Positions 15,988 to 22,030 are shown, counted from the first letter of the stretch. The stretch: 36,160 nucleotides of DNA from Actinomycetota bacterium (GCA_025963875.1 JAOPZY010000062.1:1-36160); one strand, 5' to 3'. The notes: a model not told the origin generated them from the letters alone. A program made the numbers and translations.

Positions 15988-16464
15988 CTAGTTCGATGAC
16001 TCCCGGCGATCTCGCATCCCCCGCACCGCCGTGGAGATCTCTTCGGCGTCCAGCACATCGGCCATGAGGCCCACCTGGTCGTCCCAGGTGTCGGCCGGTA
16101 TCCAGGACCTGATTTCCTCTTCCAAAATATGGTAGACGTCGAGACCCAACTGGGCCTCTGCCAATGGACCTGCGTACGTCGGGTCCCCGATGATCACGGT
16201 CTCCGCCGAGATCTCTGCGCTCTCCCCATCCGGGGCTCCGAGCAGCACCAGCAGCTTGTCCTTGCCGTGCTGGTTGACCAACCGGAGGATCGCTTCCTGG
16301 GTTCCCAGGTCCATGGCTCCCGACGCCGTTCAGACGAAGCACTCGGTGGCCGTGAACACCACATCGCTGCCGGCTGCCTTGGCGCACGCTGCGATGGCGG
16401 GGCCCGCCACGCCGTCGCGTTCGCCGAGGGCGATCACGAACTTGCCGTCGAACACTGGAGACAT
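15988..16464 (-). CDS. grdA: Glycine/sarcosine/betaine reductase selenoprotein A (158 aa, Sec at codon 45)
   Basis: From ATG 16464 (purine-rich AAAGGGGG upstream): [27 protein letters not shown]...ATECFV-TGA(16332-16330)-TASGAMDL..., continuing in frame into ORF 15988..16314 ([17 protein letters not shown]). Has the GrdA CxxU motif. Confidence 0.95.
16296..16309 (-). promoter_or_regulatory. Candidate bacterial SECIS hairpin of grdA
   Basis: CCTGG-GAAC-CCAGG begins 20 nt after the UGA; the loop starts with G. Confidence 0.6.
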
Positions 16465-16513
16465 CACCCCCTTTAAGGAAATCGGTCGTCCCTGTCGCGG
16501 CTCCATCAAGGAT

Positions 16514-17941
16514 CTACGAACCCTGATTTCGCTCGAGCAGGACGCTCATACCGTCGGATGCCTGTGTCATCCTCCCCAGAAACAGGCTTCCCTTTGCAAT
16601 CATATGCACTCGGGTCGCGTCGCCGCTGGTCAGCCGGCGCACCGCGTGCGGAAGGTAGCACAGCGCCGAGGCGAGGTGGCCCTGCGTGGGAGCGAAGCCG
16701 GGCATGCCCCGCTCGGCCATGAACTGCGGGATCGCCTCCCGGCCGATGTCCCCCCGCCGCGCGGCGAGGGCGGCCAGGGTCTTGTAGTTGCGCTCGGGAA
16801 CATTGCCCGAGCCCTGGGGCTCGGTGATCTCGGGGTTGTGGAGCTCGGTGGCGTAGTCGTCGACGTCGAGCATGCTGAGGCCGAGCTCCTCGAGCGGCTG
16901 GACGCCGAGCGCCTCCATGATCAGCGGGTTGGACGAGCCCGCCTGCACCCGGTGGCGACCGACGCCGTCGAGGCGCATCACGGGCGAGGCACCGTCGTCG
17001 GTGGTCACCAGGGCGGCCGAACCGCCCACGACGTCCTCGAGGACCGGCAGGCCATGCTTCAGGTGGCCCTGGAACTTCATGCCCAGCTTGGGTAGGGATC
17101 CCCCGCCCACCACCGCGACGTTGCGGAAGACCCCCGAAGCGACCAGCGCGCCGGCGATCACGAGCGCCGGGACGGGCGCGGCGCAGAAGTTCTTCACATC
17201 GGCGCCGGATGCCTGGCCGAGCCCGGCCGCCTCGGCGATGGTCTTGCCCATGTTGCCGCCGCCGCGCTGGTAGCGGTCGCCGACGGCCTCCTCCGAGCAG
17301 GAGATGACGTAGTCGATGCTGTCGGGATCGATCCCGTGGTCGTCGATGAGGTGCAGCAGGGCGAGGGTGCCGGTGGCCTTGCAGGCGAGGTTCTCGAGCA
17401 GCACGCCGGCGGCGAGCGCGTCGTCGGAGTCGTGGGCGTGGCGGAAGCCCGCGGCCAGCCGGTCCCGCGCGACGTGCAGCGGCAGGGAGCCGTGCTCGGC
17501 GGCCACGGCCTCGGCGTCGCCCGAGGCGGCAGCCAGCCGGTCGAGGTTCAGCCTCTTGGCGAGGGGATGCCGGGCAAGACCGGCTGCGGCGAGCTCGGCC
17601 ACCTCGTAGTCGAGGGTGACGAGACCGAACTGGTCCAGGCAGGCCAGCAGGCCGAGGAACTCCTCCTCGGGCATGATCTCGCCGCCGGAGGTGAAGCGGC
17701 CGGCGGCCGGTCCCGCCCCGACCCAGGGACGCGCCGGCAGGTCGCGGGGGTGGAGGGCGCCGATGTAGGCCTGGTGGGGCAGGTAGGCGACTGCCTCGTC
17801 GAAGCTTCGCAGCGACCCGAGGAACTGTGCCAGCACCTCGGCGTTCCGGGGCAGCTCACGGCTCGGCTTCGAGCCGTGGCGGGCGAGGCCCGGCACGTGG
17901 GCCAGCACCTGGGCGGCGTGACTGACGACGGGGTTGCCCAT
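16514..17941 (-). CDS. grdC: Glycine/sarcosine/betaine reductase component C, FabH-like subunit
   Basis: [92 protein letters not shown]. Confidence 0.93.
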
Positions 17942-17949
17942 CTACGTTC

Positions 17950-19269
17950 TCACGCTGGTGCCGGCGCCACGAGCATCGGGTCGAAGATCGTCGGCTTGTG
18001 GACCTCGGTCGAGACCGCGACCAGCGCCGTCTCCAGCAGCCGGCGGCGCCAGGCCCGCTCGGCTTCGGGATCGAGGCTGGGGTCCCCGGCGGGGAAGGGG
18101 ATGCCCCGCGTCGGCACGATGCGCGGCGCGCCCACCCTCGCCGCGATGGGCACGAGGTTCACCAGCAGGGCGGTGGGGATCCCGGCCCGCTCCAGCTCCT
18201 TCGCAAGCGTTGACCCGCAACGCGTCCCGGTCCCTCACGTGGCGGTCAGGATCGCCGCCTGGACGCCGGCACGGCGAAGCTCCGCTGCCCACTCGACACC
18301 GAAATGCGTGGCGTCGGCAACGCCGGTCCCGTTGCCGGCGGTGACGAGGTAGTCCGGGTGCAGGGCCTTGATCTCCCCGGACGCCTCCATCTCCCGGGCG
18401 ACGTCGAGGGGCAGCAGGCGGTTGGGGTCGGCGTTGGCGACCACGGTCGAGAAGCCGCCGTGGACGGACTGGAACTCGCCGGCGGCCATGGTGTCCCGGC
18501 CGGTGAGGGGGTAGCGGAACCAGTGCTTGGCCCGGGCGGATTCGAGGCGGTCGGGGTTGCCGAAGGGCACGAGCGCCCCCTCGGTGAGGATCGCCACGAC
18601 GGCTTCCCGGGGGTCGGCGATGGGGGCCGCGGGGGCCACGTGGCCGAAGTCGGGGAGCTTGATCTCGGTCGTCTTGCCGCCGGCGAGCCGGGACAGCGCC
18701 AGCAGCACGGCGCGCTGCGCCGCCGTGAGGGGGGCCAGCGAGTTGCGCCGGGCGCCGGCAGATGCACCGCCGATGACGCCTTCCGCCTCGCCGGGCGTCC
18801 CGCCCTTGGCCAGGACCGCCGCGGCGGCGGCCATCTTCGTCAGGGCGTCGCCCATGTGCCGCGCCGCGTCGCCCGAGTTGACTGCGACCGCCGGGGCCAC
18901 CTCGGGCACCCCCGGGTTCGACGGGTCCATGGCGGCGAGCGCGGGGATGCCGGCCGCCGACGCCGCGGCCGCCACCCTGGCGCAGGCGATGCCGTAGCGG
19001 CCGCTCCCGAAGGCGGGGCCCGCGATCAGCAGTTCGGCGCCGGCCTCGGTGGCCAGGGCGAGGATCTCGGCGGGGGCGTTGCGCTCGGACGCCGCATAGT
19101 CGTCGCCGCAGTACACGGTGGCCACCAGTTCGTGGCCCTCCGCCGCCAGGGCTGCGGCGAGCTTGCGCCCGGGCCCGACGGCCCCCTCGCGCGATGCGGG
19201 CAGGGTGGACGCCTTGTCCTCCCCGCCGATGCCCGCGAAGAACTGGTTGATGTAGTGGACGACCTTCAT
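17950..19269 (-). CDS. grdB: Glycine/sarcosine/betaine reductase-family selenoprotein B (439 aa, Sec at codon 345)
   Basis: ATG 19269 MKVVHYINQFFAGIGGEDKA, GPAFGSGRYG, HGGF, DPNRLLPLD, then AAILTAT-TGA(18237-18235)-GTGTRCGSTLAKELERAGIP, continuing in frame into ORF 17950..18162 (VGAPRIVP...GDPSL). Confidence 0.95.
18207..18223 (-). promoter_or_regulatory. Candidate bacterial SECIS hairpin of grdB
   Basis: GCGTTG-CGGGT-CAACGC starts 11 nt after the UGA, the spacing known for the E. coli fdhF SECIS. Confidence 0.7.
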
Positions 19270-20561
19270 TCGCTCACCATGTCCGCTCCCGACGCTGTCA
19301 GCTTTCCCCATCCGAGCGGGCTCAACGCCGCGACGATGACCGCGGTGGGCACCTCCATCGCCGCCGAGGCGTCGACGTCGAGGAGGGCGAAGCGCTCGGC
19401 GCCGTAGGCCTTCTCCACCGCCGGGAGCTGGAGTCGCTCGTCGTAGTTGCCGGTCGAGACCATGGCCGTGGCGGTCGAGGGCGGGGAGACGAGCGGCGGC
19501 GCGTTCCCGTCGGGGCCGGACATTTCGGAGAAGAGCCCCACCCCCAAGATCCCGACCTCCTCCAGCGCATCCATCTTCAGCGAATTGTCGGAGTCGGCGT
19601 TGCCCCCGCCCTCCTTCGTGATGATGGCGGCGTCCCAGCCGAGGGCGGCGCACAGCCGGGCGGTATGGGCGGCGGTCAGCTCCTTCGCCGCCTGGTCGAC
19701 CGGCTCCGGCGACAGGATCAGCCCGGCGAACTCCAGCGTTGCCGTGTCGGCGGCGCGCAGGGCCGCGACGACCGGGTTGTTCTGGTGGACGTAGGTGGGA
19801 TTGCGGAGGGCCGGGTGCCCGTACTGGCCGCTCACGATCGCCCCGTCGTCGATTTCGCAGGCGTCGATCGCCACCGGCGGGGACCCCGCCAGGCTGTGGC
19901 CGTAGAAGAAGACGTCCTTGAAGGCGCCCTGCGTCTGCAGGTTGGTGATCGCCCCGACCCTCGGCAGCGGGCCCTGGCCGCTGCGGGGGCCGGGCGTCGC
20001 AATCTCTTCGACCTCGTCCGGCGGCGCGCCGGCCGCGGCAGTGGCGTCGGCGAGGCGGGCCGCCACCCTCAGCATCCCCCGGCGCAGGGCGGCGTCGACG
20101 TTCTCCCACGCGGCGCCCTCGGCGGGCTCGAACTCGACGACGAGGTTGTGGGTGAGGCCCAGCGGCGACAGCTCGGCGGCCGGGCCGGACATCTCGACCA
20201 GCGCCTCCTGCGCCCTGGGCAGGAAGCCGGCGGCCACGACGGCGGCGCCGCGCAGCACATGGGTCTCGCCCCGCCCCTGGACCTTGGCGGGGGAGACGAA
20301 GCCCGGGAAGGCGCCCCCTTTTGGACCCTTGGACCTGGGCTCGACCGCGTCGAGCACCTTGACGATGCGGGCGCTGTCGCCGGGCGACACCCAGCTCAAC
20401 CGCACCGAGGTGAGGGCCGGGTCGGCCACCAAGGCCTCGAGCTCGGGCCTCGACGCGCTGAGCGTGCCTGCCTCGAACCCCGTTGCGTCGCCGAAGCCGA
20501 CCGCCGTCACCCGGTGAATGAGGCGCCGGAGTGCAACAGGGCTGGGCACCATGGAAACCAT
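19266..20561 (-). CDS. grdE: Reductase component B proprotein-like subunit (GrdE/GrdG/GrdI family)
   Basis: 3' part of ORF 19266..20945 from ATG 20561 (or 20552): PGDSARIVKVLDAVEPRSK, GETHVLRG, VEMSGP, DGAIVSG, PTYVHQNNP, EGGGNADSD, AMVSTGN. ATGA overlap with grdB. Confidence 0.88.
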   Translation of the reverse strand: MVSMVPSPVALRRLIHRVTAVGFGDATGFEAGTLSASRPELEALVADPALTSVRLSWVSPGDSARIVKVLDAVEPRSKGPKGGAFPGFVSPAKVQGRGETHVLRGAAVVAAGFLPRAQEALVEMSGPAAELSPLGLTHNLVVEFEPAEGAAWENVDAALRRGMLRVAARLADATAAAGAPPDEVEEIATPGPRSGQGPLPRVGAITNLQTQGAFKDVFFYGHSLAGSPPVAIDACEIDDGAIVSGQYGHPALRNPTYVHQNNPVVAALRAADTATLEFAGLILSPEPVDQAAKELTAAHTARLCAALGWDAAIITKEGGGNADSDNSLKMDALEEVGILGVGLFSEMSGPDGNAPPLVSPPSTATAMVSTGNYDERLQLPAVEKAYGAERFALLDVDASAAMEVPTAVIVAALSPLGWGKLTASGADMVSE

Positions 20562-20628
20562 CTGGAAATGGTATCGCGCCGGACGCTTGGGCCGGATGTG
20601 CCGTTTCTCGGCGAGGCATGGGTAGACT
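20557..20628. promoter_or_regulatory. Divergent promoter region with two leaderless-type -10 boxes and a possible operator
   Basis: Minus-strand TACCAT (20573-20568) lies 6 nt before grdE ATG 20561; plus-strand TAGACT (20623-20628) lies 8 nt before ATG 20637. The dyad ACCAT-N6-ATGGT (20557-20572) overlaps the grd -10 and start codon. Confidence 0.5.
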
Positions 20629-20636
20629 GCGCGGCA

Positions 20637-21629
20637 ATGGATTCTGTGACCCGGCTCAAGACCGCCATCGCCCTCGAGAAACCCGACCGGCCGCCGTTCA
20701 CGCTGTGGGGGCACACCTTCAAGGAGGAGTGGAACCCCCAAGAGCTCGCGGCGATCACGGTGCAGCGGGCACGCCGCTACCGGCTCGACTTCGTCAAGCT
20801 CCAGCCCCGGGCAACCTTCTTCGCCGAGGCCTACGGCTCCCAGTACCAGCCCTCGGGCAGCGAAGAGGAGCACCCGACCCTCACCCGGGCCGGGGTCGAG
20901 ACGCTCGAGGACTGGGCGAAGCTCCCCGAGGTCGATGCCTCCCATCCGGCCTTCGCCGACCAGGTCGAGGCCCTCCGCCTGACCGTGGCGGAGCTCGGCG
21001 ACAAGATCCCCGTCATCCAGACGGTCTTCTCACCGCTCACGGTAGCCGGCCATCTCATCGGCAAGGACCCCGAGGGGGTTGTGAAGATGCTCCTCGACCA
21101 CCCGGATCTCCTCGGCCCCGCGCTCGCACGGATCGCCCGTGGCCTTGCCAGTTTCTCGACGGCATCGGTCAAGGCCGGGGGAGTGGGTGTCTTCTTCGCC
21201 ATCTCGGGTTACGCCTCGGCCGACATGCTGTCGGAGGAGGACTACCGCCGCCTCGCCCTCGGCCACGACCTGTCGGTCATCGAGTTGCTCCCGGAGGACG
21301 CCTGGTTCAACGTGGCCCACCTCTGCGGTTCCCGCCTGCACTTCGACATCGCCAAGGCGCTCGGGCTGCAGGCGGTGAGCTGGGACGTGTACCAGCCCGG
21401 CAACCCCACCCTGGCGGAGGGCCGTGACCACACCGGCATGGCCGCCATGGGGGGGCTGCGCCAGAAGACCACCCTGGTCAAGGCGACCCCGAAGGAGGTC
21501 ATCGCCGAGGGCCAGGCCGCCCTGGAGGGCACCGATGGCCGCGGCGTGATCCTCGCTCCCGGCTGCTCGATCGACGTCCACGCCGGCGACGACAACCTCT
21601 CCGCAGTGAAAGAGGTAGTCGCGGCGTGA
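20637..21629 (+). CDS. Uroporphyrinogen-decarboxylase/MT2-methyltransferase superfamily protein
   Basis: 3' part of ORF 19665..21629: PDRPPFTLWGH, PVIQTVFSPLT, AHLCG, MGGL, ILAPGCS. The HemE MRQAGR motif is absent. Confidence 0.85.
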   Translation: MDSVTRLKTAIALEKPDRPPFTLWGHTFKEEWNPQELAAITVQRARRYRLDFVKLQPRATFFAEAYGSQYQPSGSEEEHPTLTRAGVETLEDWAKLPEVDASHPAFADQVEALRLTVAELGDKIPVIQTVFSPLTVAGHLIGKDPEGVVKMLLDHPDLLGPALARIARGLASFSTASVKAGGVGVFFAISGYASADMLSEEDYRRLALGHDLSVIELLPEDAWFNVAHLCGSRLHFDIAKALGLQAVSWDVYQPGNPTLAEGRDHTGMAAMGGLRQKTTLVKATPKEVIAEGQAALEGTDGRGVILAPGCSIDVHAGDDNLSAVKEVVAA

Positions 21630-22030
21630 AGCCGGTGGCCGGGCTGGCCGAGATCGTGCTCTGGACCCACGACATGGACCGCTCACTCGCCTTCTACCGG
21701 GATCTGTTCGGCCTCGAGGTCATCTCACCGCCGGACTTCCCCAAGCTCTTTCTCTCCGCGGGGACCGGTCCCGGCGGCATCCCGGAGATGATCGTCCTCA
21801 TGCCCCACCCCGAGCCGGGGGGAACCTTCCCGGCCCCCAAGCCCGAGCGGGTGCTGCACCACATGGCCTTCGCGGTCGACCCCGGTGCCTACGACGATCT
21901 CGAGACCCGGTGCCGGGCAGCCGGCCTGGAGGTCCGCCAGGGCATCCACCCGGTCCTCAAGGGCGTGCGGACCTTCTACGTCGACGACCCCGAGGGCAAC
22001 GAGGTGGAGATCATCGCCCTGGAGGCCTGA
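21626..22030 (+). CDS. VOC (glyoxalase/bleomycin resistance) family protein
   Basis: DMDRSLAFYRDLFGL, LHHMAFAV, TFYVDDPEGNEVEI; GTGA overlap with the upstream gene. Confidence 0.9.
   Translation: MKPVAGLAEIVLWTHDMDRSLAFYRDLFGLEVISPPDFPKLFLSAGTGPGGIPEMIVLMPHPEPGGTFPAPKPERVLHHMAFAVDPGAYDDLETRCRAAGLEVRQGIHPVLKGVRTFYVDDPEGNEVEIIALEA

Follow-up and report, generated by a model that had tools for sequence, protein, structure and literature searches.

Why would a soil actinobacterium that carries genes for terminal oxidases keep an operon for a selenoenzyme of the glycine reductase (Grd) type? Grd-type reductases are enzymes of strictly anaerobic amino-acid fermenters, in which ATP is gained through acetyl phosphate. 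We analysed a stretch of 36,160 nt from an Actinomycetota bacterium (GCA_025963875.1, JAOPZY010000062.1:1-36160), called the window below, in which four genes related to grdE, grdB, grdC and grdA lie together on the minus strand, two of them interrupted by in-frame UGA codons. Judging from sequence comparisons, we give a probability of roughly 0.6 to the reading that these genes form a functional, vertically inherited, selenocysteine (Sec)-dependent Grd-type reductase operon, and that they represent an uncharacterised clade widespread in soil Actinomycetota. The encoded complex probably cleaves a different compound from the clostridial enzyme and probably releases its product in a different way. 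We found no published treatment of this clade; one literature search listed the best 15 of 51 papers, and none of those 15 mentions Acidimicrobiales.

The operon and its place in the Grd superfamily

The grdE-like gene (20561..19266, minus strand) encodes a protein of 431 residues that matches PF09338 (1.3e-91; 308 bits against a cut-off of 22), and its TGA stop overlaps the ATG of the grdB-like selenoprotein gene (19269..17950, minus; 439 residues; PF07355, 4.2e-100, 336 bits against a cut-off of 22) in the sequence ATGA. A gap of 8 nt separates grdB from grdC, which encodes the thiolase/KAS-III-like beta subunit of protein C (17941..16514, minus; 475 residues; DUF5940 and ACP_syn_III), and one of 49 nt separates grdC from grdA, the gene for selenoprotein A (16464..15988, minus; 158 residues; PF04723, 1.5e-56). 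The in-frame TGA codons, at 18235..18237 and 16330..16332 on the same strand, would encode Sec345 of the GrdB-like protein (motif LTAT-U-GTGTRCG) and Sec45 of GrdA (motif CFVUTASGAMD). Both fall at the Sec position of their families (TU-G in GrdB, CFVU in GrdA), and the GrdB codon aligns with the U of labelled GrdB, GrdF and GrdH proteins. A first-pass annotation of the window had described four tightly linked minus-strand genes with this overlap and these spacings, two of them with UGA at the family Sec position, and our coordinates and residue numbers agree with it.

Which reductase is this? GrdC and GrdA exceed the equivalog cut-offs of their NCBIfam models (NF040746, 561 bits against 450; NF040748, 195 bits against 130). 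The two substrate-specific subunits, GrdE-like and GrdB-like, fall far under every substrate-specific NCBIfam cut-off. The GrdB-like protein scores 378 bits with TIGR01918, the model of the broad selenoprotein-B subfamily (cut-off 65), and reaches 348 bits with the glycine GrdB model TIGR01917 (cut-off 602; control GrdB sequences scored 650-820 bits), 381 bits with the sarcosine GrdF model NF040794 (cut-off 800; control GrdF, 837 bits) and 342 bits with the betaine GrdH model NF040795 (cut-off 775). For the GrdE-like protein the top NCBIfam match is sarcosine GrdG (NF040793), at 200.8 bits against a cut-off of 780 and 877 bits for the control GrdG; the fluoroacetate FarE model NF053623 gives 105.9 bits against 675. 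With the D-proline reductase models TIGR04480/TIGR04483, scores are 27 bits for PrdA (cut-off 700) and 71 bits for PrdB (cut-off 300). By these profile scores, the system is a member of the Grd/Prd selenoprotein-B superfamily and falls outside glycine, sarcosine, betaine, fluoroacetate and proline reductase as the models delimit them. Searched by sequence, the PDB returned no solved relative of GrdB or GrdE.

Phylogenetic placement points the same way. Labelled references were taken from five genomes (Acidaminobacter hydrogenoformans, Paraclostridium bifermentans, Clostridium carboxidivorans, and metagenome-assembled genomes (MAGs) of Cloacibacillus and Pyramidobacter piscolens), and their B subunits were labelled by NCBIfam cut-offs as four GrdB, one GrdF and four GrdH. 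Searching 1.84 billion representatives turned up two from the window's own clade, 59-62% identical, with the next best at 40-47%; most library homologues end at UGA. When 79 representatives were scanned, one proved to be a clear GrdH and none reached the GrdB or GrdF cut-offs; the family thus holds many unassigned clades. The actinobacterial clade has a support of 100 both in FastTree (103 rows), where it stands among unlabelled sequences only, and in IQ-TREE under LG+C20 (57 rows), where it lies within a 98-supported set made up of unlabelled sequences only, with the GrdB/F and GrdH groups outside that set. Trees constrained to unite the clade with either labelled group, GrdH (delta lnL 47.0, p 0.0146) or GrdB/F (delta lnL 62.0, p 0.0046), were rejected by approximately unbiased (AU) tests. 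The tree check proposed at the outset thus places the B subunit outside the glycine/sarcosine and betaine clades. As for fluoroacetate reductase, the FarE model matched none of 13 E-type subunits from five control genomes at E<=1e-60, and the trees contain no true FarE; one library representative, P0201, is FarE-like only, at 359 bits against the cut-off of 675. The closest named homologues of the GrdE-like protein, at 61-72% identity, belong to MAGs with the label Acidimicrobiales, Acidimicrobiia or Actinomycetota.

The library also contains four single proteins of 774-798 residues (P0121, P0131, P0175 and P0201) in which a GrdE-type and a GrdB-type part are joined. The two parts may be truly fused, or gene calling may have read through sites where stop and start overlap.

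Three departures from the classical enzyme

The first-pass annotation had drawn attention to three coinciding departures, namely the lack of the pyruvoyl Cys, an altered Sec motif and the lack of grdD; all three are confirmed, and they extend across the clade. The pyruvoyl Cys pair, SGN-C-VSA-C-DK, has both Cys in the reference GrdE (4/4) and GrdG (1/1) proteins. The GrdE-like protein reads SGQYGHPALRN at this site, within a clade pattern of SGQ-[YF]-GHP-[AG]-L[RK]N, and both Cys are absent from it and from 9/9 clade members. The four GrdI references also have neither Cys of the pair. In the B subunit, UGTCTRCG is present in 9/9 labelled GrdB/F/H proteins, and UGTGTRCG, where Gly replaces the first Cys (UxxGxxC for UxxCxxC), is found in 13/13 loci of relatives and in 7/7 loci of other families; the same Gly occurs in the Sec motif of one unassigned Pyramidobacter paralogue. 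The Ser of the STUG motif is Ala in the GrdB-like protein of the window and Gly in another actinobacterial family, f17.

GrdD had no match in the window's genome (3.84 Mb in 273 contigs, 94.56% complete), and the search of the lineage gave the same answer: no protein exceeded the GrdD cut-off in the 27 genomes of the order, 21 of which have GrdC and one of which is 97% complete in 7 contigs, nor in 401 sampled genomes of the phylum, 15 of them with GrdC. As a control, the same model was over its cut-off in four of the five reference genomes, and in the fifth it matched a fragment at a contig end. Tallies for the order, class and phylum include a few unpublished genomes (G100, G105, G111, G112, G193, G065, G075 and G077); dropping these shifts any tally by at most four and leaves the conclusions unaltered.

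Are these departures signs of new chemistry? Two of the three have precedents. In the available text of the fluoroacetate reductase paper (PMC10838667), GrdI and FarE are described as having no Cys pair and FarB as having no CxxC residues, and the current understanding of betaine and fluoroacetate reductases given there is that, without a pyruvoyl group, no Schiff-base activation takes place. Given these precedents, the departures argue for a substrate that is not activated as a Schiff base rather than for new chemistry. For the loss of GrdD together with the loss of acetyl-phosphate enzymes in an oxidase-bearing phylum, we found no precedent in print.

The acetyl outlet and a proposed mechanism

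In the classical enzyme, GrdD is said, from work by Kohlstock et al. in 2001, to form acetyl phosphate. Pta is absent from all 27 genomes of the order, and AckA is present in only 7 of the 21 genomes that bear GrdC (missing in 14), a pattern that speaks against acetyl phosphate being the conserved product. The window's genome is one of those with an ackA gene (C10:33147-34088, 342 bits), although Pta was not found in any of the order's 27 genomes; phosphoketolase, pyruvate oxidase or the present reductase could supply its acetyl phosphate. Actinobacterial GrdC has two conserved catalytic Cys, present in 11/12 and 12/12 sequences, and is without the C-terminal tail of about 30 residues that clostridial GrdC has. 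The host has two haem-copper oxidase (COX1) genes, which suggests catabolism in an aerobe or facultative host and not a clostridial Stickland fermentation. We put the chance that the product is something other than acetyl phosphate slightly below even.

Without a pyruvoyl group, the enzyme would have no means of activating primary or secondary amines as Schiff bases, so that a carboxymethyl substrate with a good leaving group would be expected. We propose that such a substrate, X-CH2-COO-, would bind GrdE/GrdB without Schiff-base activation, X being a quaternary or tertiary amine as in betaine, a halide, or another good leaving group. Sec345 of GrdB would displace X, and the carboxymethyl group would pass to Sec45 of GrdA. 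Cys42 of GrdA would then close a selenide-sulfide bond while the C2 unit moves, as an acetyl thioester, to a conserved Cys of GrdC, and thioredoxin would re-reduce GrdA. Finally, GrdC would release the acetyl group by itself. As GrdD and Pta are absent, and most carriers have no AckA either, the likeliest acceptor is CoA or water, and release as acetyl phosphate is less likely. A more specific proposal, which we offer tentatively and consider a good deal less likely than the general one, is a self-contained five-part selenoenzyme (GrdE-like, GrdB-like, GrdC, thioredoxin and GrdA) in O2-respiring soil Actinomycetota, in which the C2 unit would leave GrdC as acetyl-CoA or acetate with no acetyl phosphate stage. 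Substrates that such an enzyme might use include glycine betaine and dimethylglycine, a haloacetate, and a sulfonium- or arsonium-acetate.

The strongest alternative is that the operon encodes a functional equivalent of betaine reductase, which would convert betaine to trimethylamine, with GrdC alone making acetyl phosphate and AckA using it where present. Betaine is a common soil osmolyte, and the ackA gene of the window's genome would suit this scheme. GrdI is likewise without the Cys pair, both in our alignment and in the available text of PMC10838667. We nevertheless think it unlikely: the B subunit scores 342 bits with the GrdH model where 775 are asked for, the AU test rejects a union of the clade with the GrdH group (p 0.0146), and 4/4 labelled GrdH proteins keep UGTCTRCG. 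AckA, moreover, is missing from 14 of 21 carriers and Pta from 27/27 genomes of the order, and in no annotated locus does a betaine transporter lie beside the operon.

Only about half as probable, in our view, is an ordinary glycine or sarcosine reductase that draws its carbonyl from another source and in which an unrelated enzyme, encoded elsewhere, replaces GrdD. That GrdA and GrdC exceed equivalog cut-offs, and that the top NCBIfam names are those of sarcosine models, fits this explanation, and the available text of the fluoroacetate reductase paper (PMC10838667) speculates on a carbonyl derived from the Ser of the STUG motif. But that Ser is Ala here and Gly in f17, and both pyruvoyl Cys are absent throughout the clade. 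The scores lie far under the GrdB, GrdF and GrdG cut-offs, joining the clade to GrdB/F is rejected in the AU test (p 0.0046), and no conserved candidate partner was seen near grdEBC or near unlinked grdA.

Selenocysteine decoding

For the operon to be functional, UGA must be read as Sec. The GrdB UGA is kept in 13/13 loci of relatives, and GrdA carries exactly one TGA in 20 of the 27 genomes of the order, that is, in 20/20 GrdA matches. Starting 11 nt past the grdB UGA is a candidate selenocysteine insertion sequence (SECIS), the hairpin GCGUUG-CGGGU-CAACGC (18207..18223, minus), all six pairs of which, even at synonymous sites, are invariant in 13/13 sequences, in contrast to the variable third positions on either side. 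A short hairpin 20 nt past the grdA UGA, CCUG-N6-CAGG (16296..16309, minus), is a weak SECIS candidate; its four pairs are kept in 9/9 sequences, two of them through one-sided changes. The 70 nt 3' of each UGA fold no better than shuffled sequences (z -0.18 and 0.13), and only the local hairpins are conserved. Beyond the UGA, the reading frame continues for 94 codons in the grdB-like gene and 113 in grdA, with third-position GC of 0.93 and 0.81. Standard open reading frame (ORF) calling splits both selenoprotein genes at this codon.

The genome encodes selA (517 bits) and selB (330 bits), side by side, and selD (386 bits), which itself has one in-frame TGA. The search for Sec machinery suggested by the first-pass annotation therefore succeeded for these three genes; for selC, which encodes tRNA-Sec, the assembly holds no full-length gene and a 3' fragment only. 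The Rfam tRNA-Sec model gave sub-threshold matches alone in the assembly, and nothing around selAB or selD. ARAGORN with default settings called 43 tRNAs, none of them for Sec; with lowered thresholds it made thousands of false calls, and ten candidates put to Rfam included no tRNA-Sec. In relatives, tRNA-Sec was found in four of five genomes, at 77-81 bits (gathering score 47). It has also been remarked of this locus that Sec use is uncommon in Actinobacteria. This is doubtful, given that the available text of Zhang et al. 2006 (PMC1794560) counts Actinobacteria among three phyla rich in selenoprotein families.

The tRNA-Sec fragment lies outside the window (genome G000, contig C37:10587-10661). 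Its 3' part of 62 nt is 93.5% identical to a relative's gene and keeps the CUUCAAA anticodon loop (anticodon UCA), the T arm, the acceptor strand on the 3' side and a long variable arm in which the changes are paired. Unrelated sequence stands in place of the D arm and of the acceptor strand on the 5' side. The fragment could be a chimera made in assembly, or what is left of an attachment site used by an integrated element.

A weak hint of transcription comes from short contigs in RNA libraries (four libraries from three soil studies), which cover each of the four genes in part; three of these contigs span the grdA UGA with no differences. Stretches such as 16705-16865 and 19603-19924 are uncovered, which is uninformative; the contigs carry no information on transcript ends, and DNA carry-over is possible. 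No Shine-Dalgarno sequence was seen before the grdE ATG. The hexamer TACCAT (TANNNT; 20568..20573, minus), 6 nt before that ATG and low in information, is a candidate -10 box of a leaderless transcript; a consensus scan for promoters and terminators returned none of either.

Might the genes simply be decayed, or UGA act as a plain stop in a non-functional operon? The assembly without a full-length tRNA-Sec gene and the truncation of both genes by standard ORF calling could be read in this way. We regard decay as very unlikely, because UGA is kept at the exact Sec position (13/13 and 20/20 relatives) along with the hairpin, because selA, selB and selD are present, and because relatives have tRNA-Sec. 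The open frames beyond the UGA codons, with their high third-position GC, and the RNA-library contigs, weak as that hint is, also speak against it.

Distribution and inheritance

The GrdE-like gene is present in 23 of 113 genomes of the class. The window's order has three families, with the gene in 5/5, 14/20 and 1/1 genomes; in a fourth family the count is 2/86. A genome of the same family is syntenic throughout the region, with FtsH-like, a small ORF, DUF3426, grdA-C-B-E, UROD, S51 peptidase and DUF6049 in this order. The grdE-B-C core is intact in 12/12 loci of relatives; grdA is adjacent to it in 3/12 and, in the others examined, lies elsewhere amid unrelated genes. The arrangement grdE-grdB-grdC-grdA recurs in three further families of the phylum, and a thioredoxin ORF sits between grdC and grdA in 4/4 loci tested there, from two families. 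The window stretch itself occurs in soil metagenomes of 13 studies.

GC content is 0.667-0.757 in the operon region and 0.636-0.735 elsewhere in the window, where the remaining genes are housekeeping genes (GlgE, TreS-like, FtsH-like, PurA, PurD and PurB). Both the host-like GC and the long residence that had been suggested for the operon are upheld by these values, the syntenic flanks and the counts across the order's three families. Recent horizontal acquisition from anaerobic Firmicutes or Synergistota is thus the least probable explanation of all, since the fact that characterised relatives all come from anaerobes is outweighed by a contradicting distribution in the order and in three further families, by host-like GC and syntenic flanks, and by nearest non-clade sequences that are at most 47% identical.

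Points that weigh against a functional operon of an uncharacterised clade

Several considerations weigh against reading these genes as a vertically inherited, functional operon with its own substrate and product. On the phylogenetic side, the groups compared in the AU tests were named after the tree had been seen, and the trees were built from the N-terminal 344 residues only, the library proteins being cut at UGA. On the decoding side, the grdB hairpin shows invariance without covariation in its 13 sequences, and neither Rfam nor ARAGORN found a full-length tRNA-Sec gene in the assembly of the window's genome. Absences were scored in metagenome bins that are 64-98% complete and are hence soft, and both substrate and product are deduced from absences. 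The ackA gene makes acetyl phosphate possible in this host, and GrdC might itself catalyse phosphorolysis. The operon in the window contains no thioredoxin gene (no search for trxA or trxB elsewhere in the genome was made), and among the loci annotated there is no conserved transporter, regulator or downstream enzyme that would hint at the substrate. The proposal in the first-pass annotation of a different substrate and product accordingly stands in part: the departures behind it are real, and the step from them to a substrate and product stays inferential, as no conserved neighbour tells the substrate.

Neighbouring genes

Divergent from grdE is a UROD-fold, MtaA/CmuA-like gene (20637..21629, plus; PF01208, 5.7e-34), and overlapping its stop is a gene with a VOC/glyoxalase fold (21626..22030, plus; PF00903, 2.8e-12). 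Both genes of this pair exist as first annotated, but they are not part of the conserved unit. We rejected the UROD gene as an operon partner because it lies beside grdE in 1/12 loci of relatives (that of the same-family genome, L040), and the VOC gene because it has a tblastn match in 0/12. The UROD-fold protein scores best with methylcobamide:coenzyme M methyltransferase models (MtaA/MtbA/CmuA), at 59-87 bits and far under their cut-offs, and reaches 30 bits with hemE; no corrinoid protein or MttB-type gene is present in the window.

In a locus of another actinobacterial family (L174), an unrelated two-domain glyoxalase gene lies beside a GrdD-less grd operon and is divergently transcribed. 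It is followed by a homologue of the 56-kDa selenium-binding protein SBP56 (L174:11226-12689, plus; 612 bits), which may have a part in selenium handling or methanethiol oxidation.

We also considered stand-ins for GrdD. Near the unlinked grdA of the sister family f2, the neighbours ThiE, sortase, MoaA, DinB, MerR and HNH are unrelated and were set aside. Near grdEBC, a CrtI/CrtO-like flavoprotein, a ThiO-like oxidase, a PDZ protein, PheA and PntAB were likewise rejected, as unspecific and below curated cut-offs. The flavoprotein, a 477-residue CrtI/CrtO-like protein predicted to bind FAD (for example L043:11863-13293, minus), is encoded on the same strand as grdE in eight f2 loci (L041, L043, L044, L046-L049 and L051) and directly upstream of it in seven of these; the ThiO-like oxidase and PDZ protein genes are convergent and lie downstream in f2 loci. 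The homologue of the flavoprotein in the window's genome is unlinked (C43:18729-20156, 56% identity). Other neighbours vary from locus to locus.

Significance

Grd-type selenium chemistry appears to be a conserved trait of several soil Actinomycetota families with terminal oxidases, in which GrdD and Pta, and mostly AckA, are absent. If the operon is active, the substrates of the Grd family would extend past glycine, sarcosine, betaine, proline and fluoroacetate, GrdC would be able to work without GrdD, and the supply of selenium may govern a route of catabolism in aerobic soils. Should the five-part selenoenzyme prove to exist, it would represent a new catalytic outlet for the Grd family, and with it an unrecognised selenium-dependent breakdown of osmolytes or xenobiotics, possibly with methylamine release, in oxic soils. 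Because gene calling truncates both selenoprotein genes, and because most homologues in the library end at UGA, the system is systematically under-annotated in metagenomes.

Comparison with known systems

Classical glycine reductase, as in Peptoclostridium acidaminophilum and Clostridium sticklandii, consists of GrdA, GrdB/GrdE and GrdC/GrdD and works with thioredoxin; for our comparisons it was represented by loci of Clostridium carboxidivorans, Acidaminobacter hydrogenoformans, Paraclostridium bifermentans and Pyramidobacter piscolens. The actinobacterial system has in common with it the same four protein families, Sec in both GrdA (CFVU) and GrdB, a full-length GrdC with its conserved Cys and, in other actinobacterial families, a thioredoxin encoded in the operon. 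It differs in having no GrdD and no pyruvoyl Cys pair, in reading UGTG for UGTC, in its gene order (E-B-C-A, whereas glycine reductase loci have E-A-B-C-D) and in a host with terminal oxidases.

D-proline reductase (PrdA/PrdB) is a distant member of the same superfamily and is covered by the name of TIGR01918. It is not known to need GrdA or GrdC.

Betaine reductase (GrdH/GrdI) offers a likeness: there too, an A-type subunit without the processing Cys goes with the lack of a pyruvoyl group, a functional likeness and not evidence of membership. Unlike betaine reductase, the proteins described here form a separate clade; GrdH keeps UGTCTRCG, and organisms with betaine reductase carry both GrdC and GrdD.

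FarB/FarE of Cloacibacillus porcorum MFA1, as described in the available text of PMC10838667, resemble the present system in both substrate-specific subunits, the E subunit being without the processing Cys and the B subunit having an altered CxxC. According to the same text, FarB has neither of the CxxC residues, whereas the second Cys is kept in the actinobacterial clade, and Far, in an anaerobe, feeds into a GrdA/C/D system that is shared. FarB/FarE, so described (PMC10838667), offer a precedent for such variants taking non-amine substrates.

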